A stretch of 32,000 nucleotides of DNA from Candidatus Helarchaeota ASGARD archaeon Hel_GB_B. Lineage in GTDB: Archaea; Asgardarchaeota; Lokiarchaeia; Helarchaeales; HEL-GB-B. How positions within the stretch are numbered: the stretch's first letter is position 1; the number at the start of each line of letters is the position of its first letter. The notes under the pieces were generated by a model, which saw only the letters and a program-made list of their open reading frames with translations, did not search any database and was not told where the DNA came from. Of this stretch, positions 18,785-28,413 are shown piece by piece. Position numbers and translations under genes: made by a program. Location: contig SUPR01000023.1 of assembly GCA_005191425.1 (NCBI GenBank), positions 1-32,000 of the forward strand, given 5' to 3'.

Positions 18785-20611
18785 TTATATTAAAAAAAGC
18801 TCAAATGGCTCTTGTTTTTTATATAAATTAATAATTGTCCTACCATTTTTAGAATTTTTTCTTATTTTAATATCGCCCCTATAATCTGATTTAATTGAAA
18901 GCAATTTATTACCTTTATGGACAATTTGGAAATATCGATTTGGATATTCATCGACTTCAAAATGGATGTATTTCTTGGTTAATTTAAATTGAAATTGGAC
19001 TTTTTGAGGAATAGTCGTAGTATCTTCTTTATCATAGAAAGTCCGCACATCAATATTAAACCCGAGTTTTGATTCTAATTTGTTAATATTAATACCATTT
19101 TTACCAATTATATTTGGTCGCATGGACTTATCAACATAAATTCTGATTCGCTGGTCAGATAAAATTTCTACATCAATTTTTCCATTAGGGACATATTTTT
19201 TAATTTCATTTTTTACTTTTTCAATTACCAGTTTACTTGCGGGAGATATAAATTTCTTAACTAAAGGCATAACAACAATATTATCTCCAAAAGTATAGAT
19301 TTCATATAAAAGTTTATTAGTATTAAAATCATATACTTCGATAATGGGTCGAGCAAGGTCAGATTCCATCATTCCCTTGGGTACTCTTACAGTCATTTTA
19401 AGATAATATACAGATTCAATTTTACCTTTGTTAATATGAATTATTGTATCGATAATTTGAGGTATCATACCAAATTCAATTTTCCTATTTACAAGCATTC
19501 GTTGTATTGCATCAATAGGTGCTGTTGCATGAATTACACCTATCATGCCGATCCCTGCTAGTCGCATATCTGCGTAAATTCCGAAATCTTTTGTTTTTCT
19601 AATTTCGTCAAAAATAGTATAGTCAGGGCGGACAAGAAGTATAATACTAGCGGTTTTTTCAAGGTCATTTTCCAATGGAGCATATTGAGTAACTCCTTTA
19701 GGAACTTGGAGGTCCCGAGGATTTTCCATAGTTTTTACAATTTTGTTTTGTTGTTCATAAAATGTAGCTAATGCACCAGCAAATGTTGATTTTCCGGATC
19801 CAGGTGGTCCACAAATTAAAATTCCTTCGGCAAGAGACCCAAATCGGTTTATTAAAGTTGGCGGTAGGTCATAATCATTTAGAGTTAATTTTTTAATTGG
19901 CTTTATTGCTGTAATTTCAATTGAGTCAGAAAAAGGAGGCTCGGTAATTGTAATACGCAAGTCATTTAATTGAGCTACAATTGCTCCTTTATATTCAATT
20001 TCAAGAAAACAGCCCTTTTCAGATTTTGCTTTTTCTGTTATTACCCGAATTAATTCTTCAATTGTGTGTAAATCAATTGGTTTCTCTCTTAATTTTATTA
20101 ATTTCCAATTTCCGGGAGTACCAACTTTAGCCATTGGTGGAAGACCCTCTTTAAGATGCAATGACATCGTATCCTTGGTAAAATATTCATTAATATCAAC
20201 TTTTGGATGACTTTTTTCCTCTTTAATTAATTTAACCTCAATACCTTGAGCTCTCGCAATATCACTCTGGATTCTATCACTTGTTATTAGTATAGAACCC
20301 GAAGGCTTGGCAAAATCACGTATTATACTATCTAACTCTCCTCCAGATGCTAATTTAATCTGTTCAAGTGTGGGACGATTACCAGTAATATCCAATTTAA
20401 TTTGTTTTTCCTTACACAAATTACGAATATTATTTAATTCTTTTATTCCTAAATGTCCAGTAAGTCGTCCCATATTTGCATGATTTTCGATTTCGGCTAT
20501 TACAATTTGAGGTATAATGATTTCTGAATTTTCTTTAATAAAACCTTCCTTTATTAATTTAGATACCCGCTGGTTCATTATGACTGAGGTGTCAACTACA
20601 TATTTTGTCAT
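18785..20611 (-). CDS. PINc/VapC-family ATPase with KH domain (PINA, archaeal Holliday-junction branch-migration ATPase family)
   Basis: PIN domain (YVVDTSV...ITSD), ATPase (GPPGSGKST, IFDEIRK, GMIGVIHAT) and KH domain (IIGKNGINI). Likely ATG at 20611 (track start 20623). Confidence 0.92.
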   Translation of the reverse strand: MTKYVVDTSVIMNQRVSKLIKEGFIKENSEIIIPQIVIAEIENHANMGRLTGHLGIKELNNIRNLCKEKQIKLDITGNRPTLEQIKLASGGELDSIIRDFAKPSGSILITSDRIQSDIARAQGIEVKLIKEEKSHPKVDINEYFTKDTMSLHLKEGLPPMAKVGTPGNWKLIKLREKPIDLHTIEELIRVITEKAKSEKGCFLEIEYKGAIVAQLNDLRITITEPPFSDSIEITAIKPIKKLTLNDYDLPPTLINRFGSLAEGILICGPPGSGKSTFAGALATFYEQQNKIVKTMENPRDLQVPKGVTQYAPLENDLEKTASIILLVRPDYTIFDEIRKTKDFGIYADMRLAGIGMIGVIHATAPIDAIQRMLVNRKIEFGMIPQIIDTIIHINKGKIESVYYLKMTVRVPKGMMESDLARPIIEVYDFNTNKLLYEIYTFGDNIVVMPLVKKFISPASKLVIEKVKNEIKKYVPNGKIDVEILSDQRIRIYVDKSMRPNIIGKNGININKLESKLGFNIDVRTFYDKEDTTTIPQKVQFQFKLTKKYIHFEVDEYPNRYFQIVHKGNKLLSIKSDYRGDIKIRKNSKNGRTIINLYKKQEPFELFLI

Positions 20612-20694
20612 TAAAATCATCAAAAATTTAGAAAATACAAATTATAATGTAATTTTATTATTCTAATTCATCATTTCTTTTAAAAATAGCTTTT

Positions 20695-21597
20695 TTATAT
20701 AATCCTTATATTAAATTTCAACTTACATTTTGAGCATTTAACTTGTTTAATATTATTGATACCACTTTTAATTGGTATTTTTAACAATGAAATTTTAAGA
20801 CTCTCATTTTTACACCTTGGACATTTCCAATAATTTGTAATTTCTTTATTAATTTCAATATATTTGTCATTATCTTTATCATAAGACCGAATTTGAATTA
20901 TTTTTTCGAGTTTATCAGGTATTTTATTTTTAATATTTGGGTCATTTTTTAACTGTTTAATTATACTTATACGTATCGTCTGATAAAAATCGTCCAGATT
21001 TCTAGCTATCATTTTTCCTTTTAAAGTTAAAACATAAAAATCGTTTTCTTTATTAATATAATTCTCGTTAATTAATTCATTTATGTGTTTATAGGTCATA
21101 CTATTACTTAATCCCATTTTATATGCAATATCTTTAAGGTTATTGACACCTCTATTTATTAAATCGATAATATCTTTTTTAGGTTCAGTGATTTCCCATA
21201 TTAATATGGGAATATCAATTAATTCATTTTTTTCTTCTGTTAAATAAAATAACCTGTTTATCTTATTATATTCAATATAACATGCTAATTGGGTACCAAA
21301 TGCAAGAGTTTTTCTCCCGCTTGAAATATTTACAAAAATTGTATTCCCCTCTAAATATTCTTGATTTATTATTTTTCTTACTTTTTTTATAATAGAAACT
21401 ATATCATAATGATCTACTTGAATAAACTGACTCGGAATGAAACTTGAAGGGATGGCATCTTTCACCTTTTTAATTTCATTACTAACTCTTTCATTTGGAA
21501 CACCATGAAATATGAATAATTTATCTCCACCAAACATTTTAACAGTATTTATTATTACATTTGCCTTATATCCTAGAGTACAAATTATAGATTTCAT
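20695..21597 (-). CDS. CARF-domain winged-HTH transcriptional regulator (Csa3-like) with a C-terminal zinc ribbon
   Basis: CARF motif I ICTLGY and motif II VNISSGRK. wHTH: LKDIAYKMGLSNSMTYKHINELINENYI...YVLTLKG. C-terminal CPRC-x25-CSKC. Confidence 0.8.
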   Translation of the reverse strand: MKSIICTLGYKANVIINTVKMFGGDKLFIFHGVPNERVSNEIKKVKDAIPSSFIPSQFIQVDHYDIVSIIKKVRKIINQEYLEGNTIFVNISSGRKTLAFGTQLACYIEYNKINRLFYLTEEKNELIDIPILIWEITEPKKDIIDLINRGVNNLKDIAYKMGLSNSMTYKHINELINENYINKENDFYVLTLKGKMIARNLDDFYQTIRISIIKQLKNDPNIKNKIPDKLEKIIQIRSYDKDNDKYIEINKEITNYWKCPRCKNESLKISLLKIPIKSGINNIKQVKCSKCKLKFNIRII

Positions 21598-21880
21598 TTA
21601 TTTTCATATTAATTAAAAAAAAATGGTATATATATAATTTATGGAATTTTGATAACAGATGTAAGTTTTATATATGAAGGTAAGACTTTCAATATTAGCT
21701 AGATAAAGTTTATATAAAATGCTTCTAAAATTAAGTATATCTAGAAAACTTGTTCAAAATAAATTGATAAAAATAAAGAAGAATTAGCTTCCAAAAAAGA
21801 TGATATTAATCAAAAAAATATACCCAAAAAAAAATTTCCGAATATTCAAAAAGTGAGGGGTATATATAGATTAAATTAAA
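21598..21880. promoter_or_regulatory. Divergent promoter region between the CARF regulator and nurA
   Basis: 283-nt gap between head-to-head genes. TATA-like elements at about 21627-21637 (positioned for the minus-strand gene), 21663-21675 (AAGTTTTATATAT) and 21706-21719 (AAGTTTATATAAAA). The background is AT-rich, so individual boxes are uncertain. Confidence 0.45.
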
Positions 21881-23152
21881 GTGAGATTTATGCCAGAATT
21901 CATTAAAGAATTTATTGATGCATTAAATACCAAAAAACCTAGAATTATTGAAGATTTTAAAAGTATAAAATTGGTTGATATTTTTAAAGATGAGTTTGCG
22001 AAATTTTGGATAGATTATAATTTGAAAAAAGCTCGACCAGGTCAAAATATACTAGCAATTGATAGTAGTCGAGGATTAATACCATTTGGTAATGGGGGCT
22101 TTTTTCACGTTGTTAGAGCCTTGGGCATCGTTAGAAATATTAGATATCCATATGTTTTTACAGACTTTGATTTTGGACAACCACTAAGAATGTATAATTA
22201 TATTGGAAGAGTAATGGAATGGGCTGAACATAAAGTGGCTATAAATGCCATAAAAGATGGGTTCAATGGTTATATATTGGTCGATGGCTCAATATATGGT
22301 AGATTAGTGCATCTTCCTTTAGAATTAGAACTTATAAATAATAAATCTTTTATGATACATTATTTTGAAACATTAATCGAACTACTTGATCTGTGTAAAA
22401 ATAAGAATATTCCGTTTATAGGTGTAAGTAAAGAAAGTAGGACTGGATTTTTTAAGGAGTTTTTAATCAAGGAAATTCTTAAGAAAATAATTCATGATGA
22501 ACAATTTTTGGGAGAATTAGTAAGTTTAGGACTTGAAAATAAACGCAAAGCTATTGAAATTGCTAGAAAAACTGGAGACGATCAGATAATTTCTTTAATA
22601 AATGAACTTGTATATAAAAAGCCCGATGCCTTATTGATTTTAAATAACGCCCTTAATTCGGGATATACACACCCACTTTTATTAGGGGCAAGTCAGAGGT
22701 GGAGGAGAGCTTCAAAAATGATTTCGAGAGATCCAAAAGAATATATTCGTAAAAATTTTCCATTATCTTCTTTAGACAATAATTTTTTAAATTTCGCGCA
22801 GGATATTGTCAAAAAAATGTTGGATTTTCCTGCAATTGTCTCATTTCATTTATTACCCCAAATTAATGATACACCTATTCGGATTGATATCCCAGATTGG
22901 TATTTCGACCTTGATTCTAAACTTATAGAAATTGGATGGCCTCAAATTGTTGACATTGATTTAGAAGAAATTTTAAATTTAATTTCGGCTGGATATTGTG
23001 GGCTGGACAATTATAATATTTGGTTGAAATTTGTTGATGATAATGTTAAATTAAAAAGAAATATTTTAGAAAATATTTATTTACAAAAATTTGAAGAAAT
23101 TATTAGTAAAAAAGCAACCTCAAGGGGGTATAGACGTGTTAGATATCCATAA
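21881..23152 (+). CDS. nurA: DNA double-strand break repair nuclease NurA
   Basis: LAIDSS, LVDGSIYG, IGVSKES and GYTHPL; first gene of the herA-mre11-rad50 cluster. Confidence 0.9.
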   Translation: MRFMPEFIKEFIDALNTKKPRIIEDFKSIKLVDIFKDEFAKFWIDYNLKKARPGQNILAIDSSRGLIPFGNGGFFHVVRALGIVRNIRYPYVFTDFDFGQPLRMYNYIGRVMEWAEHKVAINAIKDGFNGYILVDGSIYGRLVHLPLELELINNKSFMIHYFETLIELLDLCKNKNIPFIGVSKESRTGFFKEFLIKEILKKIIHDEQFLGELVSLGLENKRKAIEIARKTGDDQIISLINELVYKKPDALLILNNALNSGYTHPLLLGASQRWRRASKMISRDPKEYIRKNFPLSSLDNNFLNFAQDIVKKMLDFPAIVSFHLLPQINDTPIRIDIPDWYFDLDSKLIEIGWPQIVDIDLEEILNLISAGYCGLDNYNIWLKFVDDNVKLKRNILENIYLQKFEEIISKKATSRGYRRVRYP

Positions 23153-24725
23153 AATTGGTTTAATTATAGGTGAATCAACACCTACTGAATTTTTATTTGC
23201 AGTTGATGAGTCAATTGGAAGATTAGAATATGTTTTAGTAAAGTCTAAAGAAATTTTATTGGAAAAGTCGGGTAATAGAATAGAAGAAATAGAGGCAGAT
23301 GTAGAAATTGTTGCCCAGATCTACAAAATTTTTGCTAACTCGATGGCATTATTAGAAGGATTAAATTTAGAAAGTGCTGAAAAAATAGTGGAAGCTGGTC
23401 TTTCGGATAATCGAGTATTTGCTAAAGCTAGAGTACTTGGATTTTTATATAAAGGCACGATATATGAACCCAGAAAAGCTATTAAACCAGGAAATATTGT
23501 TTATAGAGCACCTAAAGAACTACTTGAACAATTCTATTCCTATAGTAAAGATGAAGGTTTACACATTGGAAATTTAATTACGAGACATGATGTCCCAGTG
23601 AGTTTAAGTATTAAAGGATTTAGGAGGCACCTTGCAATACTAGCTCAAACTGGGGCAGGTAAAAGCTACACAGCTGGGGTTTTAATAGAAGAATTATTAC
23701 AGAAAGGAGCTACAATTATTATAATAGACCCGCACGCAGATTATGTTTTTATTGGTAATAAAAAAGATGGTACTAAAATAGATAGAGTAGATATTTTCAG
23801 AACGCCTGAAAGTACAGGCAGGTATGATGAAAGTGAAATAGGAAAAAAAGTCGAAAATTATTCGATCAAATTTTCTGATTTAAGTCTAACTGAAATAGAA
23901 ATAATTTGTGGCATAAATGAAAAATGGACAAATATTACAAGTGCTATTCAAAATACAATTGATAACTTTAAACAAAATAATCAAGATTATTCTCTTGAAG
24001 ATTTATTAAATGAGCTTATAAATGGAGATAAAAATGATAAGAGCGCTTCTAAATATATTAATAGATTGAACAAAATAAAAGTTTGGGGCGATGCTACAAC
24101 GGATATTGGGAAATTTCTCAAGCCAAAACATATTTCAATTATGGACCTATCGGGATTAAATGACACCATCTCAGACTATGTTAATTATAAAATTTTAAAT
24201 GATATATATTATCAAGTGGAAAGTAAGAATTTCGAATATCCAGTGTTTATTTTTATTGAGGAGTCTCATAAATTTATACCCAATAAAGAAAATAAATTGT
24301 CTAAATCAATCATTAAGAAGATTGCCTCTGAAGGTAGAAAATTCGGTATTTTTTTGGTCTTAATCACTCAACGACCATATAAAATAGACCAAGATGCCTT
24401 AAGCCAGTGTAATAGTCAGATTATAATGCGTATGACAAATCCTACGGACCAAAATGCTATAAAAACAAGTTCTGAACGGATAAGTGAAAATTTGTTAAAT
24501 GATTTACCTGGTCTAAATATTGGTGAAGCAGTCGTTGTGGGAGAAATAACAAGAGCACCAGTTATGATTAAAGTTCGGGAACGAATAACCGAAGAAGGCG
24601 GCGCAGATATTGATATAATAACTAAATTAAAAGAAGCATCTGAAGAAGCTGAACATGAAAAGGAAAAAAAGGAAGATGGATTACAAGAGTCAGTTTCAGA
24701 AATTAGAGATTTAGTGGAGAGTTAA
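23136..24725 (+). CDS. herA: DNA double-strand break repair helicase HerA
   Basis: N-terminal HAS-barrel-like region, RHLAILAQTGAGKS, FIFIEESHKF, IASEGRKFG and ITQRP. Likely GTG start at 23136 after GGGGG, overlapping the nurA stop (track start 23091). Confidence 0.94.
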   Translation: MLDIHKIGLIIGESTPTEFLFAVDESIGRLEYVLVKSKEILLEKSGNRIEEIEADVEIVAQIYKIFANSMALLEGLNLESAEKIVEAGLSDNRVFAKARVLGFLYKGTIYEPRKAIKPGNIVYRAPKELLEQFYSYSKDEGLHIGNLITRHDVPVSLSIKGFRRHLAILAQTGAGKSYTAGVLIEELLQKGATIIIIDPHADYVFIGNKKDGTKIDRVDIFRTPESTGRYDESEIGKKVENYSIKFSDLSLTEIEIICGINEKWTNITSAIQNTIDNFKQNNQDYSLEDLLNELINGDKNDKSASKYINRLNKIKVWGDATTDIGKFLKPKHISIMDLSGLNDTISDYVNYKILNDIYYQVESKNFEYPVFIFIEESHKFIPNKENKLSKSIIKKIASEGRKFGIFLVLITQRPYKIDQDALSQCNSQIIMRMTNPTDQNAIKTSSERISENLLNDLPGLNIGEAVVVGEITRAPVMIKVRERITEEGGADIDIITKLKEASEEAEHEKEKKEDGLQESVSEIRDLVES

Positions 24726-24728
24726 AAA

Positions 24729-25832
24729 TTGAGAATTGCGCATATATCAGACACTCACTTAGGATATAGACAATATAATCTTGATGAACGCGAACAAGAT
24801 ATTTATGACGCTTTTGACGAAGCTATTTCAAAAATTATTGAGGAAAGAGTCGATGTATTGATACATTCAGGAGATTTATTTGATTCACCAAACCCACAAA
24901 TTAAAGCTTTAAAATCTTTTAAGAATTCAATAGAAAAATTGGAAGGAAAAGTAAAAATTTTTAGCGTTTTGGGTGACCACGATATGCCTAAGAGGAGAGG
25001 AATACCACCTCATAAACTTTTTAATGTTAATGTGCTTGGAATAGGTAGATTACAATCAGAAGAATACAAAGGAGTTTTATTTAGTGGGATTTCAAATTTA
25101 AAAGGGAATAATATCATACTTCTTAAAGAAGAATTAAAAAAATTTGACCATGAAGCGGAAAAATATAAAAAATCGGTTCTTATTTTACATCAAGCTCTCA
25201 AAAAATATCTGCCTTTTGAAGGGGCTTACGAATTAACTGCAGATGATTTGCCTAGAAGTGCAACGTATTATGCTCTGGGACACATTCATTCTCGATTATT
25301 TACTAAATTTGGAAGTGGAAAACTTGCTTATGCGGGGTCAACTGAAATTTTAAGAAAAGATGAAATAAGTTCATGGGAAAAAAATGGTAAAGGTTTTTAT
25401 ATTATAGATCTAGAGGACGATGAAGTGGCTATAAATAAAATTGACTTAGATATCAGACCACAAATTAATATCGATATTAATACTGATGAATTAGAAGAAA
25501 TATCAGACAAACTGAACTATGGTAAAAAACCTATCCTTCATGCGCGAGTTATTGGAGAACATATTGATATGAAAGCAATAATTGAAAAATTTAATGAATT
25601 ATATAGAAATAAGACCTTAAGTATTAAACTAAGTTTTAAGGATACTTCGTCAAAAATGAATCTAATTCCTCAAAAAGACTGGAATTTAAAGAAACTAATG
25701 TCAGAATATCTTAATGATGAAATTCTTGCGGACCTTGCGTATAATTTATACCAATTATTGATTGATAACAATATAGAAGAGGCAAAAAAGGTTGCAGAAA
25801 AGTTTTTGGAGGAAAATAAAAATGATCTTTAA
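24729..25832 (+). CDS. mre11: DNA double-strand break repair nuclease Mre11
   Basis: Phosphoesterase motifs HISDTHLG, HSGDLFD, GDHD, LHQ and LGHIH; YAGS. Confidence 0.95.
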   Translation: MRIAHISDTHLGYRQYNLDEREQDIYDAFDEAISKIIEERVDVLIHSGDLFDSPNPQIKALKSFKNSIEKLEGKVKIFSVLGDHDMPKRRGIPPHKLFNVNVLGIGRLQSEEYKGVLFSGISNLKGNNIILLKEELKKFDHEAEKYKKSVLILHQALKKYLPFEGAYELTADDLPRSATYYALGHIHSRLFTKFGSGKLAYAGSTEILRKDEISSWEKNGKGFYIIDLEDDEVAINKIDLDIRPQINIDINTDELEEISDKLNYGKKPILHARVIGEHIDMKAIIEKFNELYRNKTLSIKLSFKDTSSKMNLIPQKDWNLKKLMSEYLNDEILADLAYNLYQLLIDNNIEEAKKVAEKFLEENKNDL

Positions 25833-28413
25833 AAAAATAATTTTGAAAAATTTTATTTCCCATAATGAAACCGAGATTGATTTTCCTCTGGGAGTCACTG
25901 TGATTGTGGGCGAGAATGGTGCAGGGAAATCTTCAATTCTAGATGGTCTAATTTTTGCATTATTTGGAGATAAAGTGAGGGGGGATACCATTACAGATAT
26001 TATAAGGTGGGGTACTTCTTCTGCTGAAATCATACTTGATTTTGATATGGATTCAGTAGAATATGAAGTTAAATGGACTCGGACAAAAAGAAATGTAAAT
26101 GCTAAATTAATAAGGAAGGATATTGGTGTTATTGCTACTCATAAAGATAATGTAGTTAATGAAATCCCTAAAATTTTAAAAATGGACAAAGAGACAATTA
26201 TTAACTCGATATTTATACGCCAAGGAGAAATTGCAAGTCTAATAGACGCCGACCCAAAAGTAAGAAAAAATTTAATTGGAAAATTAATTGGCCTGGATAA
26301 AATGGAAAAATCATGGGAATTAATGAAAAAAGTGATAGAACATTTTGAAGAAGAAAAAAAGGATTTAAAAAATAGAAAAAGTGAACTTGATATAGAGATA
26401 AAAACAAAGACCAAAAACATTGAAAAAATAAAAATTGAAATCGATGACTTGAAAAATAAAATAACATCACTTGAAAAAGATTTTAAATTAGTAAATAAGC
26501 AATTTAAAAATATTGATGAAAAATTAAATGAATTGAACAAAAAAAAGGAGATATATAATAAGCTTCATACATCAATAGAAGTAATCAGTGGAGAACTTTC
26601 TTTAATAGAAAAGGAGATAGAAGACTTTAAAGTTTCGGTAGCTGAGAGTAAAGAAGCAAAAGAAAAGATGAAAGAATTAGAAAAAAAAATAGAAAGAATT
26701 CCACTAATAGAACAATATGTTGAGAAATTTCGAAAATTAAATGATGAAAATGAGAATTTGAATGATTTTACTAATGAAATTAATGAAATTCAAAATATAG
26801 ATAAAAATTTACGTAAAAAATTTGAGGAATATAAAGAATATAAATCGAATATTGAAGTTGATTTAGAAATACAGGATGATTTGTGGCAGATAAAGGAAAT
26901 ATATTCAAATTTAATTTATGATTTAGATAGCCATTTTTCACAAATTTCTGAAATGAAGGACGAACTTAAAAAATTAATAGAAAAAGCTAAAAAAGTATTA
27001 ACAGATATTACGCCACAAGGAAAAGAAGACAAAATAAATGAATTAGAAAAGAGAATAAAAGAAATTGAAACTAAAATAAGAAATCTACAGGAGAGTTATG
27101 GACAAAAAATTGGTAGAATTCGTGAAATTGATGAATTCTTAGATTTATTAAAAGAAAAAGATATTTGTCCAGTGTGTAAATCAAAACTGACTATAGACCA
27201 TAGAAAAAAAGTGACAAATGAACTACGGGATGAGAAAAAAAGGCATATTGATGAACTAAAAAAAATTCAAAATGAACTTGAAGGGTTAAATAAATCTAAA
27301 TCTGAATTAAACCAGAAAATCAAAGAAGTTACGGAAATAAATGTGAAAAGAATTATTAAACTAAAGAAAGATATCGATAAAAAGTCATTAGAATCTAAAA
27401 AATTATATAAGAAACTTCAATTAATTGAAGTTAAACTCGCTAAAATTAAAACTAATATTGAAAAAGACATATCAGACATCAATGTATTAATTAGGAAACT
27501 ATCGGATGATATTCAAGAAATTATCACAAAAATTGGATACGAACCTACGAAGCCCGAAAATGAATTAAAGAGATTGAGAGAAAAAGAAAATGAATATAAT
27601 AATCTCAAACCGATTGCTGGCCGATATAATGAATTAACTCAAAAACTTGAATTAAAAAAATCCAGGAAAAGCATTTTATTGTCTAATTTGAATGATACTA
27701 ATCAAAATATAAAAGAGTTAGGCTATAATAAGGAAGAACATGAGAAAATAGGGGAAGAACGGGATAAATTACTCCAAAAACAGATTAAAATAAAAACGGA
27801 ATTAAATGAAAAAAAGGAATTACTTGAAAAAAGAATAGAAGAGATGAAAGAATTAGAAATAGAACTAAAAAAATATGCTGCTGATCTTAAAAAAATAGAA
27901 AAAAGTCTTAATAAAATCGAAGAATTTCTAAATAAATTAGAAAGAGTAAGAGGTTCATTCTCGAGAGATGGAGGACAAAAATTGGTCCGAAGAGTGATCG
28001 CTCCAATTATCTCGGAGTATGCGAAGACATATGTTGAACATTTTAATCTTGACATAATGAACATAGAAATATCAGAAGATTTTGATATTTCAATTGTAAA
28101 AGGTGGAAATGAAGTATCAATTAAATCGATGAGTGGTGGGGAGAAGGTCGCGATAGCTATTGCTATAAGATTAGCACTTGCTAAGACTATTTCCGGGAAT
28201 TTATCCTCAATAATAATGGACGAGCCAACAATACACCTTGACGATGAGAGACGTAGAGAACTTGTTGATATAATGAAGGATTTTCTGATGGACAATAGAA
28301 TAGTGCCGCAAATGATAATTATTAGCCATTTTGCAGGTTTAGAAGATGTTGCAGATACAATTTATCAAGTAAAAAAAACAAATAACGTTTCAAGGGTCGA
28401 ATTAATTACGTAA
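25822..28413 (+). CDS. rad50: DNA double-strand break repair ATPase Rad50
   Basis: GENGAGKSS, RQGEI, long coiled coils, zinc hook CPVC, signature MSGGEK and IMDEPTIHLD. Likely ATG at 25822 after GGAGG (track start 25792). Confidence 0.95.
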   Translation: MIFKKIILKNFISHNETEIDFPLGVTVIVGENGAGKSSILDGLIFALFGDKVRGDTITDIIRWGTSSAEIILDFDMDSVEYEVKWTRTKRNVNAKLIRKDIGVIATHKDNVVNEIPKILKMDKETIINSIFIRQGEIASLIDADPKVRKNLIGKLIGLDKMEKSWELMKKVIEHFEEEKKDLKNRKSELDIEIKTKTKNIEKIKIEIDDLKNKITSLEKDFKLVNKQFKNIDEKLNELNKKKEIYNKLHTSIEVISGELSLIEKEIEDFKVSVAESKEAKEKMKELEKKIERIPLIEQYVEKFRKLNDENENLNDFTNEINEIQNIDKNLRKKFEEYKEYKSNIEVDLEIQDDLWQIKEIYSNLIYDLDSHFSQISEMKDELKKLIEKAKKVLTDITPQGKEDKINELEKRIKEIETKIRNLQESYGQKIGRIREIDEFLDLLKEKDICPVCKSKLTIDHRKKVTNELRDEKKRHIDELKKIQNELEGLNKSKSELNQKIKEVTEINVKRIIKLKKDIDKKSLESKKLYKKLQLIEVKLAKIKTNIEKDISDINVLIRKLSDDIQEIITKIGYEPTKPENELKRLREKENEYNNLKPIAGRYNELTQKLELKKSRKSILLSNLNDTNQNIKELGYNKEEHEKIGEERDKLLQKQIKIKTELNEKKELLEKRIEEMKELEIELKKYAADLKKIEKSLNKIEEFLNKLERVRGSFSRDGGQKLVRRVIAPIISEYAKTYVEHFNLDIMNIEISEDFDISIVKGGNEVSIKSMSGGEKVAIAIAIRLALAKTISGNLSSIIMDEPTIHLDDERRRELVDIMKDFLMDNRIVPQMIIISHFAGLEDVADTIYQVKKTNNVSRVELIT

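Follow-up and report, generated by a model that had tools for sequence, protein, structure and literature searches.

Csa3a, which combines a CARF domain with a winged helix-turn-helix (wHTH), binds to the promoters of nurA-mre11-rad50-herA and nurA-herA in Sulfolobus islandicus and activates them (PMC5587795), and it also activates DNA-damage-response genes of the same organism (PMC7515695). The statement in a preliminary description of the DNA analysed here, that Csa3a has been reported to activate DNA-repair genes, is correct. In haloarchaea, HFX_2341 is a Csa3-like repressor of many housekeeping genes that is unlinked to CRISPR (PMC11434293). Csa3-type control of nurA and herA and CRISPR-unlinked Csa3-like regulators are already known, and since both have been published, the term "undescribed system" used in the preliminary description is too strong. 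The control of homologous-recombination genes in archaea, particularly in Asgard archaea, is largely unknown. Here we analyse a 32,000-nucleotide stretch of DNA, called the window below, from the Asgard archaeon Candidatus Helarchaeota Hel_GB_B (contig SUPR01000023.1, C98 in our numbering), in which a gene of the Csa3/HFX_2341 family lies back to back with a nurA-herA-mre11-rad50 operon. Within the searchable library, no paper was found on a Csa3-like gene that is physically paired with an end-resection operon or that occurs in Asgard archaea.

The source genome (G000) is a metagenome-assembled genome (MAG) of 3.54 Mb in 182 contigs, with 93.7% completeness and 28% G+C. The locus consists of the following elements:

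20695 to 21597, minus strand: gene of the Csa3/HFX_2341-family regulator, 300 residues (TIGR01884, PF19810, AF2 model, Foldseek)
21598 to 21880, no strand: divergent intergenic region of 283 nt with 19% G+C and TATA-like boxes near both genes (read directly)
21881 to 23152, plus strand: nurA (Pfam NurA, 1.1e-9)
23091 to 24725, plus strand: herA, "type A" paralogue (DUF87/HerA, 4.7e-37; the top NCBIfam matches are double-strand-break-repair HerA models)
24729 to 25832, plus strand: mre11 (Metallophos, 1.6e-14; Mre11_Sulfo, 9.6e-84)
25792 to 28413, plus strand: rad50 (SMC_N, Rad50 zinc hook and SbcC Walker B; Rad50 models down to 1e-108)

All four repair families are present (Pfam and NCBIfam), and their genes are co-oriented and tightly packed, with either an overlap or a 3-nt spacer between neighbours. 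The regulator gene and nurA are divergent, with a gap of 283 nt; a nurA start at the ATG at 21890 would make it 292 nt. The open reading frames (ORFs) and their Pfam and NCBIfam matches bear out the previous description of a CARF (TLGY, NISSGRK) plus wHTH gene that is divergent from a complete end-resection operon across 283 nt. We propose, as the most likely explanation, that the regulator is a local, ligand-gated control of nurA-herA-mre11-rad50 that acts from the divergent promoter region, a reading to which we give the same weight as to its being wrong.

The regulator is a CARF, wHTH and Zn-ribbon protein of the Csa3/HFX_2341 family, with three parts:

21193 to 21597, minus strand: CARF domain, residues 1-135, with Thr7-Leu-Gly-Tyr10 after β1 and Asn90-Ile-Ser-Ser-Gly-Arg-Lys96 after β4
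20998 to 21186, minus strand: wHTH, residues 138-200 (HTH_45, 3.3e-8, Pfam span 142-206)
20698 to 20997, minus strand: C-terminal extension, residues 201-300, with three helices and a CPRC-x25-CSKC Zn ribbon (predicted local distance difference test score, pLDDT, 56-86)

The protein passes the NCBIfam Csa3 model TIGR01884 (70.8 bits, cut-off 60.2). Its best Pfam match is PF19810 HFX_2341_N (residues 5-122, 8.9e-16, 58.9 bits, cut-off 30), and Csa3_N PF22662 (7e-8, 33.0 bits, cut-off 27) and Cas_APE2256 also match. The motifs CTLGY and NISSGRK occupy residues 6-10 and 90-96, and the Zn ribbon CPRC...CSKC spans residues 259-291. The CARF signature reportedly described by Makarova et al. in 2014 combines a polar Ser/Thr after β1 with [DN]x[ST]xxx[RK] after β4; the regulator carries T7 at the end of β1 and N90-I-S92-S-G-R-K96 at the end of β4, both of which are highly conserved. 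The most conserved columns among 81 homologues include T7, N90, G94, R95, K96, T97, Y118, E122 and P130. A confident AlphaFold2 (AF2) model calculated from these homologues (pLDDT 89.7, predicted template modelling score 0.85) has a β-α pattern in residues 2-128 and a wHTH in residues 138-197, which agrees with the CARF Rossmann fold assumed earlier. The top Foldseek matches in the PDB are Csa3 bound to cyclic tetra-adenylate (cA4; 6wxq), with 2wte and 6w11, and the CARF7-HTH ring nucleases (Crn1, 7pq3) Sis0811 and Sso1393; Can2, Card1, Cami1 and Csm6 come next. The family profile reaches CARF proteins of the PDB by sequence, and the wHTH matches archaeal and bacterial wHTH repressors there. 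Relatives of residues 201-300 comprised a weak Elf1-like match and generic Zn-ribbon look-alikes, none of them informative. The tail with both cysteine pairs is common only to the same-genus orthologue and one metagenomic copy.

The regulator is predicted to form a homodimer (interface score ipSAE 0.57, compared to 0.00 for the best control). The prediction runs share at least 87% of their contacts with a partner pLDDT of at least 88. Among proteins of solved structure, the ipSAE mark was attained by 21 of the 30 homodimers and by none of the 23 single chains. The predicted interface is formed by residues 91-100 and 118-135, with K96 opposite K96 on the two-fold axis. Because Csa3 dimers have already been solved, the prediction is a likeness rather than independent proof. 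The pocket residues are the best conserved positions of the protein and lie on this predicted interface. Since the pocket is conserved, the regulator probably binds some ligand.

An alternative is that the protein is chiefly an enzyme, a ring nuclease of the Crn1 type (CARF7 plus HTH) that breaks down a cyclic oligonucleotide, and not a transcription factor; its structural matches to Sis0811 and Sso1393 are as good as those to Csa3. By position, its pocket-floor K96 and the Thr after β1 mirror the Ser/Lys pair of these enzymes, and Csa3a is without that Lys (PMC8699464, PMC9638899). However, the same Ser/Lys pair is present in Card1, which does not cleave cA4 (PMC9638899). Furthermore, no source of cyclic oligoadenylate (cOA), including any known cOA synthase, was detected in G000, and conservation of the wHTH is strong throughout the family, with Y169, L175, T191 and G194 nearly invariant among the homologues. 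We consider a primary role as a ring nuclease very improbable.

Local control from the shared promoter region would work as follows. The homodimeric Csa3/HFX_2341-family factor would couple a two-fold CARF ligand pocket to two winged helices, with the Zn-ribbon tail as a genus-specific addition. One TATA-like box, TATATATA, is located at about 21627-21640, approximately 30 nt ahead of the regulator start, and another, GTATATATAG, at 21860-21869, approximately 25 nt ahead of the nurA ATG at 21890; about 200 nt separate the two boxes. We infer that the regulator dimer binds between them, within 21598-21880, and that a small nucleotide-type ligand tunes its effect, in either direction, on nurA-herA-mre11-rad50. 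The regulator may also adjust the expression of its own gene and perhaps of the neighbouring PINA gene. The search for an operator yielded no inverted or direct repeats in 21560-21920 above shuffled controls (16-36% G+C DNA).

Twenty of the larger ORFs of the window were scanned against Pfam, and none of them is a cas gene. Cas1, Cas10 (Cmr2 and Csm1), RAMP and SMODS gave no match in G000, and the positive-control genomes gave matches. A k-mer scan of the whole G000 assembly found no CRISPR array; its four repeat candidates were rejected as coding tandem repeats. These results agree with the earlier observation that the window contains neither cas genes nor an array, and the search for Cas10 or other cyclases in the genome, proposed together with it, was empty. 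Cmr2-type Cas10 and RAMPs were also not detected in the three relatives with close homologues (G001, G003 and G006). RAMPs were detected in the order-mates G004 and G005. Cas-like tblastn matches on contig C116 of G000 were set aside: they correspond to a solitary Cas6-like gene and to a DEAD/MrfA helicase, both in metabolic surroundings, and form no cas operon. The Cas6-like gene (G000:C116:16301-17071, locus L089; PF10040, 4.9e-14) has an HdrD-like gene and a pyruvate-formate-lyase-like gene as its neighbours, and its vicinity contains no array and no further cas gene. The absence of these systems from the genomes is likely rather than certain, since all of them are MAGs. The proposal of a CRISPR-independent switch stands in that no cas or cyclase gene was detected; the independence itself is not proven, because the genomes are MAGs.

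The absence could also be a matter of assembly. According to this explanation, the regulator is an ordinary CRISPR-associated Csa3 whose cas or type III partner lies in the unassembled ~6% of the MAG, its ligand is cOA made by Cas10, and the repair genes share their control with adaptation, which is the case in Sulfolobus. MAGs frequently lose CRISPR loci, G000 contains the orphan Cas6, the regulator passes the Csa3 model, and its Asgard homologues mostly lie beside type I-A cas genes. Nevertheless, the protein and array searches described above were empty, and the regulator falls outside the cas-linked clade of the family tree, so that we regard an undetected partner as quite improbable.

An exhaustive family search gave 204 clusters, mostly of CARF-wHTH proteins of ~200 residues, and 48 of 400 Asgard genomes had a family match at E <=1e-12. 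Genomic context was inspected for 40 of these Asgard loci. Twelve of them adjoin type I-A cas genes (Csa5-Cas7-Cas5, Csa1) and are therefore genuine Csa3. In the type I-A loci of one Asgard family (L061, L064, L065, L067, L068, L076 and L082), the gene that comes after the Csa3-like one encodes, in every case, a ~535-residue protein with two wHTH domains, itself a weak match to the Csa3-like profile. Nine other loci (L048, L049, L050, L052, L056, L062, L063, L070 and L073) adjoin a conserved cluster of a superfamily 1 (SF1) helicase of ~920 residues (AAA_11/AAA_12), a ~366-residue protein and a phospholipase D-like (PLD) nuclease, often with a radical-SAM gene. This cluster may correspond to the helicase-plus-PLD layout of the "Mokosh" defence system, which it resembles. 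Inside the order, the G004 homologue adjoins type I-D-like cas genes. None of the homologues outside the order is adjacent to nurA-herA-mre11-rad50 among the 40 loci; in G386, an operon of this type lies ~6 kb from the homologue. In the maximum-likelihood tree, the window protein, those of G001 and G006 and four metagenomic proteins form one clade (Shimodaira-Hasegawa-like approximate likelihood ratio support, SH-aLRT, 98), and a separate clade of 40 rows (support 92) holds all cas- and helicase-PLD-linked copies. The classification by profile and phylogeny that had been suggested thus assigns the regulator to the Csa3/HFX_2341 family, in a clade apart from the cas-linked one.

The link of the regulator family with break-repair genes is confined to one order, the Helarchaeales. 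In G003, which belongs to another family of the order (~30% protein identity), the homologue is divergent from genes for HNH, β-CASP, NurA, HerA, Mre11, Rad50 and an AAA_5 ATPase. This operon (G003:C103, L006 8183-19000) is co-oriented throughout, from the HNH endonuclease and β-CASP nuclease to the ATPase, and in G280 (L122) and G055 (L128), genes of the same β-CASP family have Mre11-like or Rad50-like genes in their vicinity. The G006 orthologue (G006:C61, L008 3-2256) has a Rad51-like gene on one side, a LigT 2H phosphoesterase on the other, and an in-frame TAA at codon 39. LigT-type 2H phosphoesterases act on 2',3'-cyclic or 2',5' phosphate linkages. The divergent neighbour in the metagenomic relative L087/L130 is the N-terminus of the β-CASP family found in the G003 operon; a metagenome scan for more synteny yielded only a near-duplicate of L087. 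In G001, a sister species of the same genus, the regulator contig ends 250 nt upstream of the gene, and NurA(254-423)-HerA-Mre11 lies on a 3-kb contig that is cut at both ends. These breaks are compatible with adjacency of the regulator and nurA and do not demonstrate it. The search of genome contigs for related loci found no relative, and look-ups of the proteins P0005, P0008, P0009 and P0020 led to contigs too short to inform on synteny.

The regulator may instead be a global or unrelated Csa3-like factor of the HFX_2341 kind, placed beside the repair operon by a lineage-specific accident. PF19810, the family of HFX_2341, is the best Pfam match of the regulator, and the neighbours of close homologues vary. 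In G001 (L009 691-2955) and a metagenomic copy (L088 1194-3458), an XcyI-type restriction endonuclease and an N6/N4 methyltransferase, and not PINA, lie downstream of the regulator. The closest metagenomic relative (48% identity, 12-kb contig) is flanked solely by small ORFs of no assigned family. On its side, 5 kb away, a 640-residue protein (L085 1224-3146) with two tandem HFX_2341_N/CARF-like domains sits among small ORFs without Pfam matches. Several results weigh against local control. Repair genes are missing from the 8 kb upstream and the 3 kb downstream of the closest metagenomic relative, and 20 other Asgard nurA-herA-mre11-rad50 loci of both paralogue types have no CARF-wHTH gene within ~8 kb. 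The PINA neighbour is not common to G001 or G003. No shared operator motif emerged: k-mers or palindromes common to eight upstream regions of relatives did not exceed shuffled controls. The tree leaves the G003 protein unresolved with respect to the window clade; joining the two was not rejected (approximately unbiased test, p 0.40), for a group that was named after the tree had been seen. Finally, all the genomes compared are incomplete MAGs. In contrast, repair genes are neighbours of three of the four order-level homologues with visible context, with partners that are not orthologous, and local regulators typically lie divergently across a long promoter region that they share with their targets. 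An accidental neighbourhood is possible but, in our judgement, unlikely. The conservation of the adjacency, on which the preliminary description had staked its proposal, therefore holds in part: the adjacency recurs inside the order, but it does so with a non-orthologous operon, and it is not broad, with none of the 20 other Asgard loci and not the closest relative on a long metagenomic contig sharing it.

That the partner operons differ is evident from G000 itself, which carries a second set, HerA (C-terminal part)-Mre11-Rad50, on contig C158 (G000:C158:3-4665), a contig that starts inside herA. The HerA, Mre11 and Rad50 proteins of C158 are 61, 46 and 30% identical to those of G003, compared to approximately 30, 26 and 31% for the window proteins. 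Because the C158 set holds the true orthologues of the G003 proteins, the window and G003 operons are non-orthologous. The window HerA shares 47-56% identity with its counterparts in several other Asgard families, but only ~30% with that of the G003 operon. One inherited ancestral arrangement is less likely, because the G003 operon is of a different HerA/Mre11 paralogue type. The two types of HerA/NurA-Mre11-Rad50 operon (HerA ~30-37% identical) are patchily distributed over Asgard families; G386, G135 and G000 have both HerA types, whereas 27 genomes from two further Lokiarchaeia families yielded neither at E <=1e-60.

A second CARF-like regulator of G000 is encoded on contig C138 (L013 7445-10721) and combines HFX_2341_N with a DUF6293 winged helix in 383 residues. 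It is preceded by a HAD/PNKP-like phosphatase and directly followed by a β-CASP nuclease, which is cut off by the end of the contig and is an orthologue (38-41%) of the β-CASP protein in the G003 repair operon. The DUF6293/β-CASP pair is also present in G214 (L120). We do not claim that C138 continues into C158 as in G003; the β-CASP gene of G001 has no repair genes downstream. A weak profile/BLAST match near the β-CASP gene of G279 (37% local identity to the window protein) was dropped, as it has no CARF or HTH Pfam match.

Downstream of the regulator lies one more gene of DNA metabolism:

18785 to 20623, minus strand: PINA, with a PIN-ATPase-KH layout (NF010335)

PINA is an archaeal Holliday-junction branch-migration ATPase (PMC6061704). 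The ORF reaches 748 bits against NF010335 (cut-off 340) and has the PIN, hexameric ATPase and KH layout in Pfam; against the PINA equivalog model it scores 433 bits (E 1e-129), under the strict cut-off of 800. It begins 71 nt downstream of the regulator gene on the same strand. This spacer contains a T5 run and a TATA-like box, and the two genes may be co-transcribed. The 20 other Asgard repair operons have no β-CASP or PINA gene within ~8 kb. The remaining surroundings in the window are of housekeeping type (ribosomal protein L3, GMP synthase, RpiA, EndA, eIF-2B), with no defence island and no mobile element. Elsewhere in the window (10001-12353), a 437-residue ORF without a Pfam match (11040-12353) comes after 1 kb of DNA with 21.6% G+C.

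If the regulator is wired to nurA-herA-mre11-rad50 as a ligand-gated factor, one protein, one 283-nt region and a few nucleotides would offer a concrete entry point into the control of recombination genes in Asgard archaea, and CARF sensors would be shown to work outside CRISPR immunity. If the adjacency is a local accident, the protein is one more orphan regulator of the Csa3/HFX_2341 type. We speculate further that Csa3-type proteins of the Helarchaeales, freed from CRISPR, sense a nucleotide signal not made by Cas10 and switch the nucleases of double-strand-break repair, an extension that we hold to be improbable. The signal might consist, for example, of oligonucleotides from end resection or of the product of an unrecognised cyclase. 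The DUF6293/β-CASP pair and the HNH/β-CASP/repair operon of G003 would then belong to the same logic, which would amount to a DNA-damage circuit of the SOS kind in archaea related to eukaryotes.

The regulator can be compared with four groups of described or related proteins. Crn1 (Sis0811, Sso1393) has the same two-domain fold (Foldseek E ~1e-8), a pocket-floor Lys and a hydroxyl residue after β1; it differs in that these proteins are enzymes of type III CRISPR signalling, whereas G000 has no detected cOA source. The Asgard Csa3-like proteins encoded beside type I-A cas or SF1-helicase/PLD genes (L048-L082) are of the same family (profile E 1e-13 to 1e-27) and have the same core length, but they form a separate clade, have defence neighbours and are without the Zn-ribbon tail. 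HFX_2341 of Haloferax mediterranei (PF19810) is likewise a Csa3-like CARF-wHTH protein of ~300 residues encoded far from any CRISPR locus, with homologues in CRISPR-negative species (PMC11434293). It differs in that it is reported to repress genes globally, chiefly those of transport and metabolism, and to repress cas genes when over-expressed, and no repair-gene neighbours have been reported for it (PMC11434293). Csa3a (S. islandicus and Saccharolobus solfataricus; 2WTE, 6W11, 6WXQ) has the same CARF plus wHTH architecture and a homodimeric pocket of the kind predicted for the regulator; the residue numbers of its motif 1 (Thr-h-Gly-aromatic) and its motif 2 (h-x2-Gly-x-basic) are nearly identical to those here. 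In motif 1 of the regulator (T7-L-G-Y-K-A-N-V-I-I-N17), the Thr, Gly and aromatic residue are kept, with Tyr for Phe, but the Asn/Asp-Glu and Arg of Csa3a are lost; in motif 2 (I91-S-S-G94-R-K96), the Gly is kept, and Lys96 takes the place of the pocket-floor Arg98 of Csa3a. The structural identity is 13-15%, and the regulator has in addition the 100-residue Zn-ribbon tail. Csa3a belongs to a type I-A locus and binds cA4 made by Cas10, whereas the regulator is paired with a repair operon and has no detectable cas genes or cyclase. The arrangement resembles a hard-wired version of the link between Csa3a and repair in Sulfolobus, seen in only a few related genomes.

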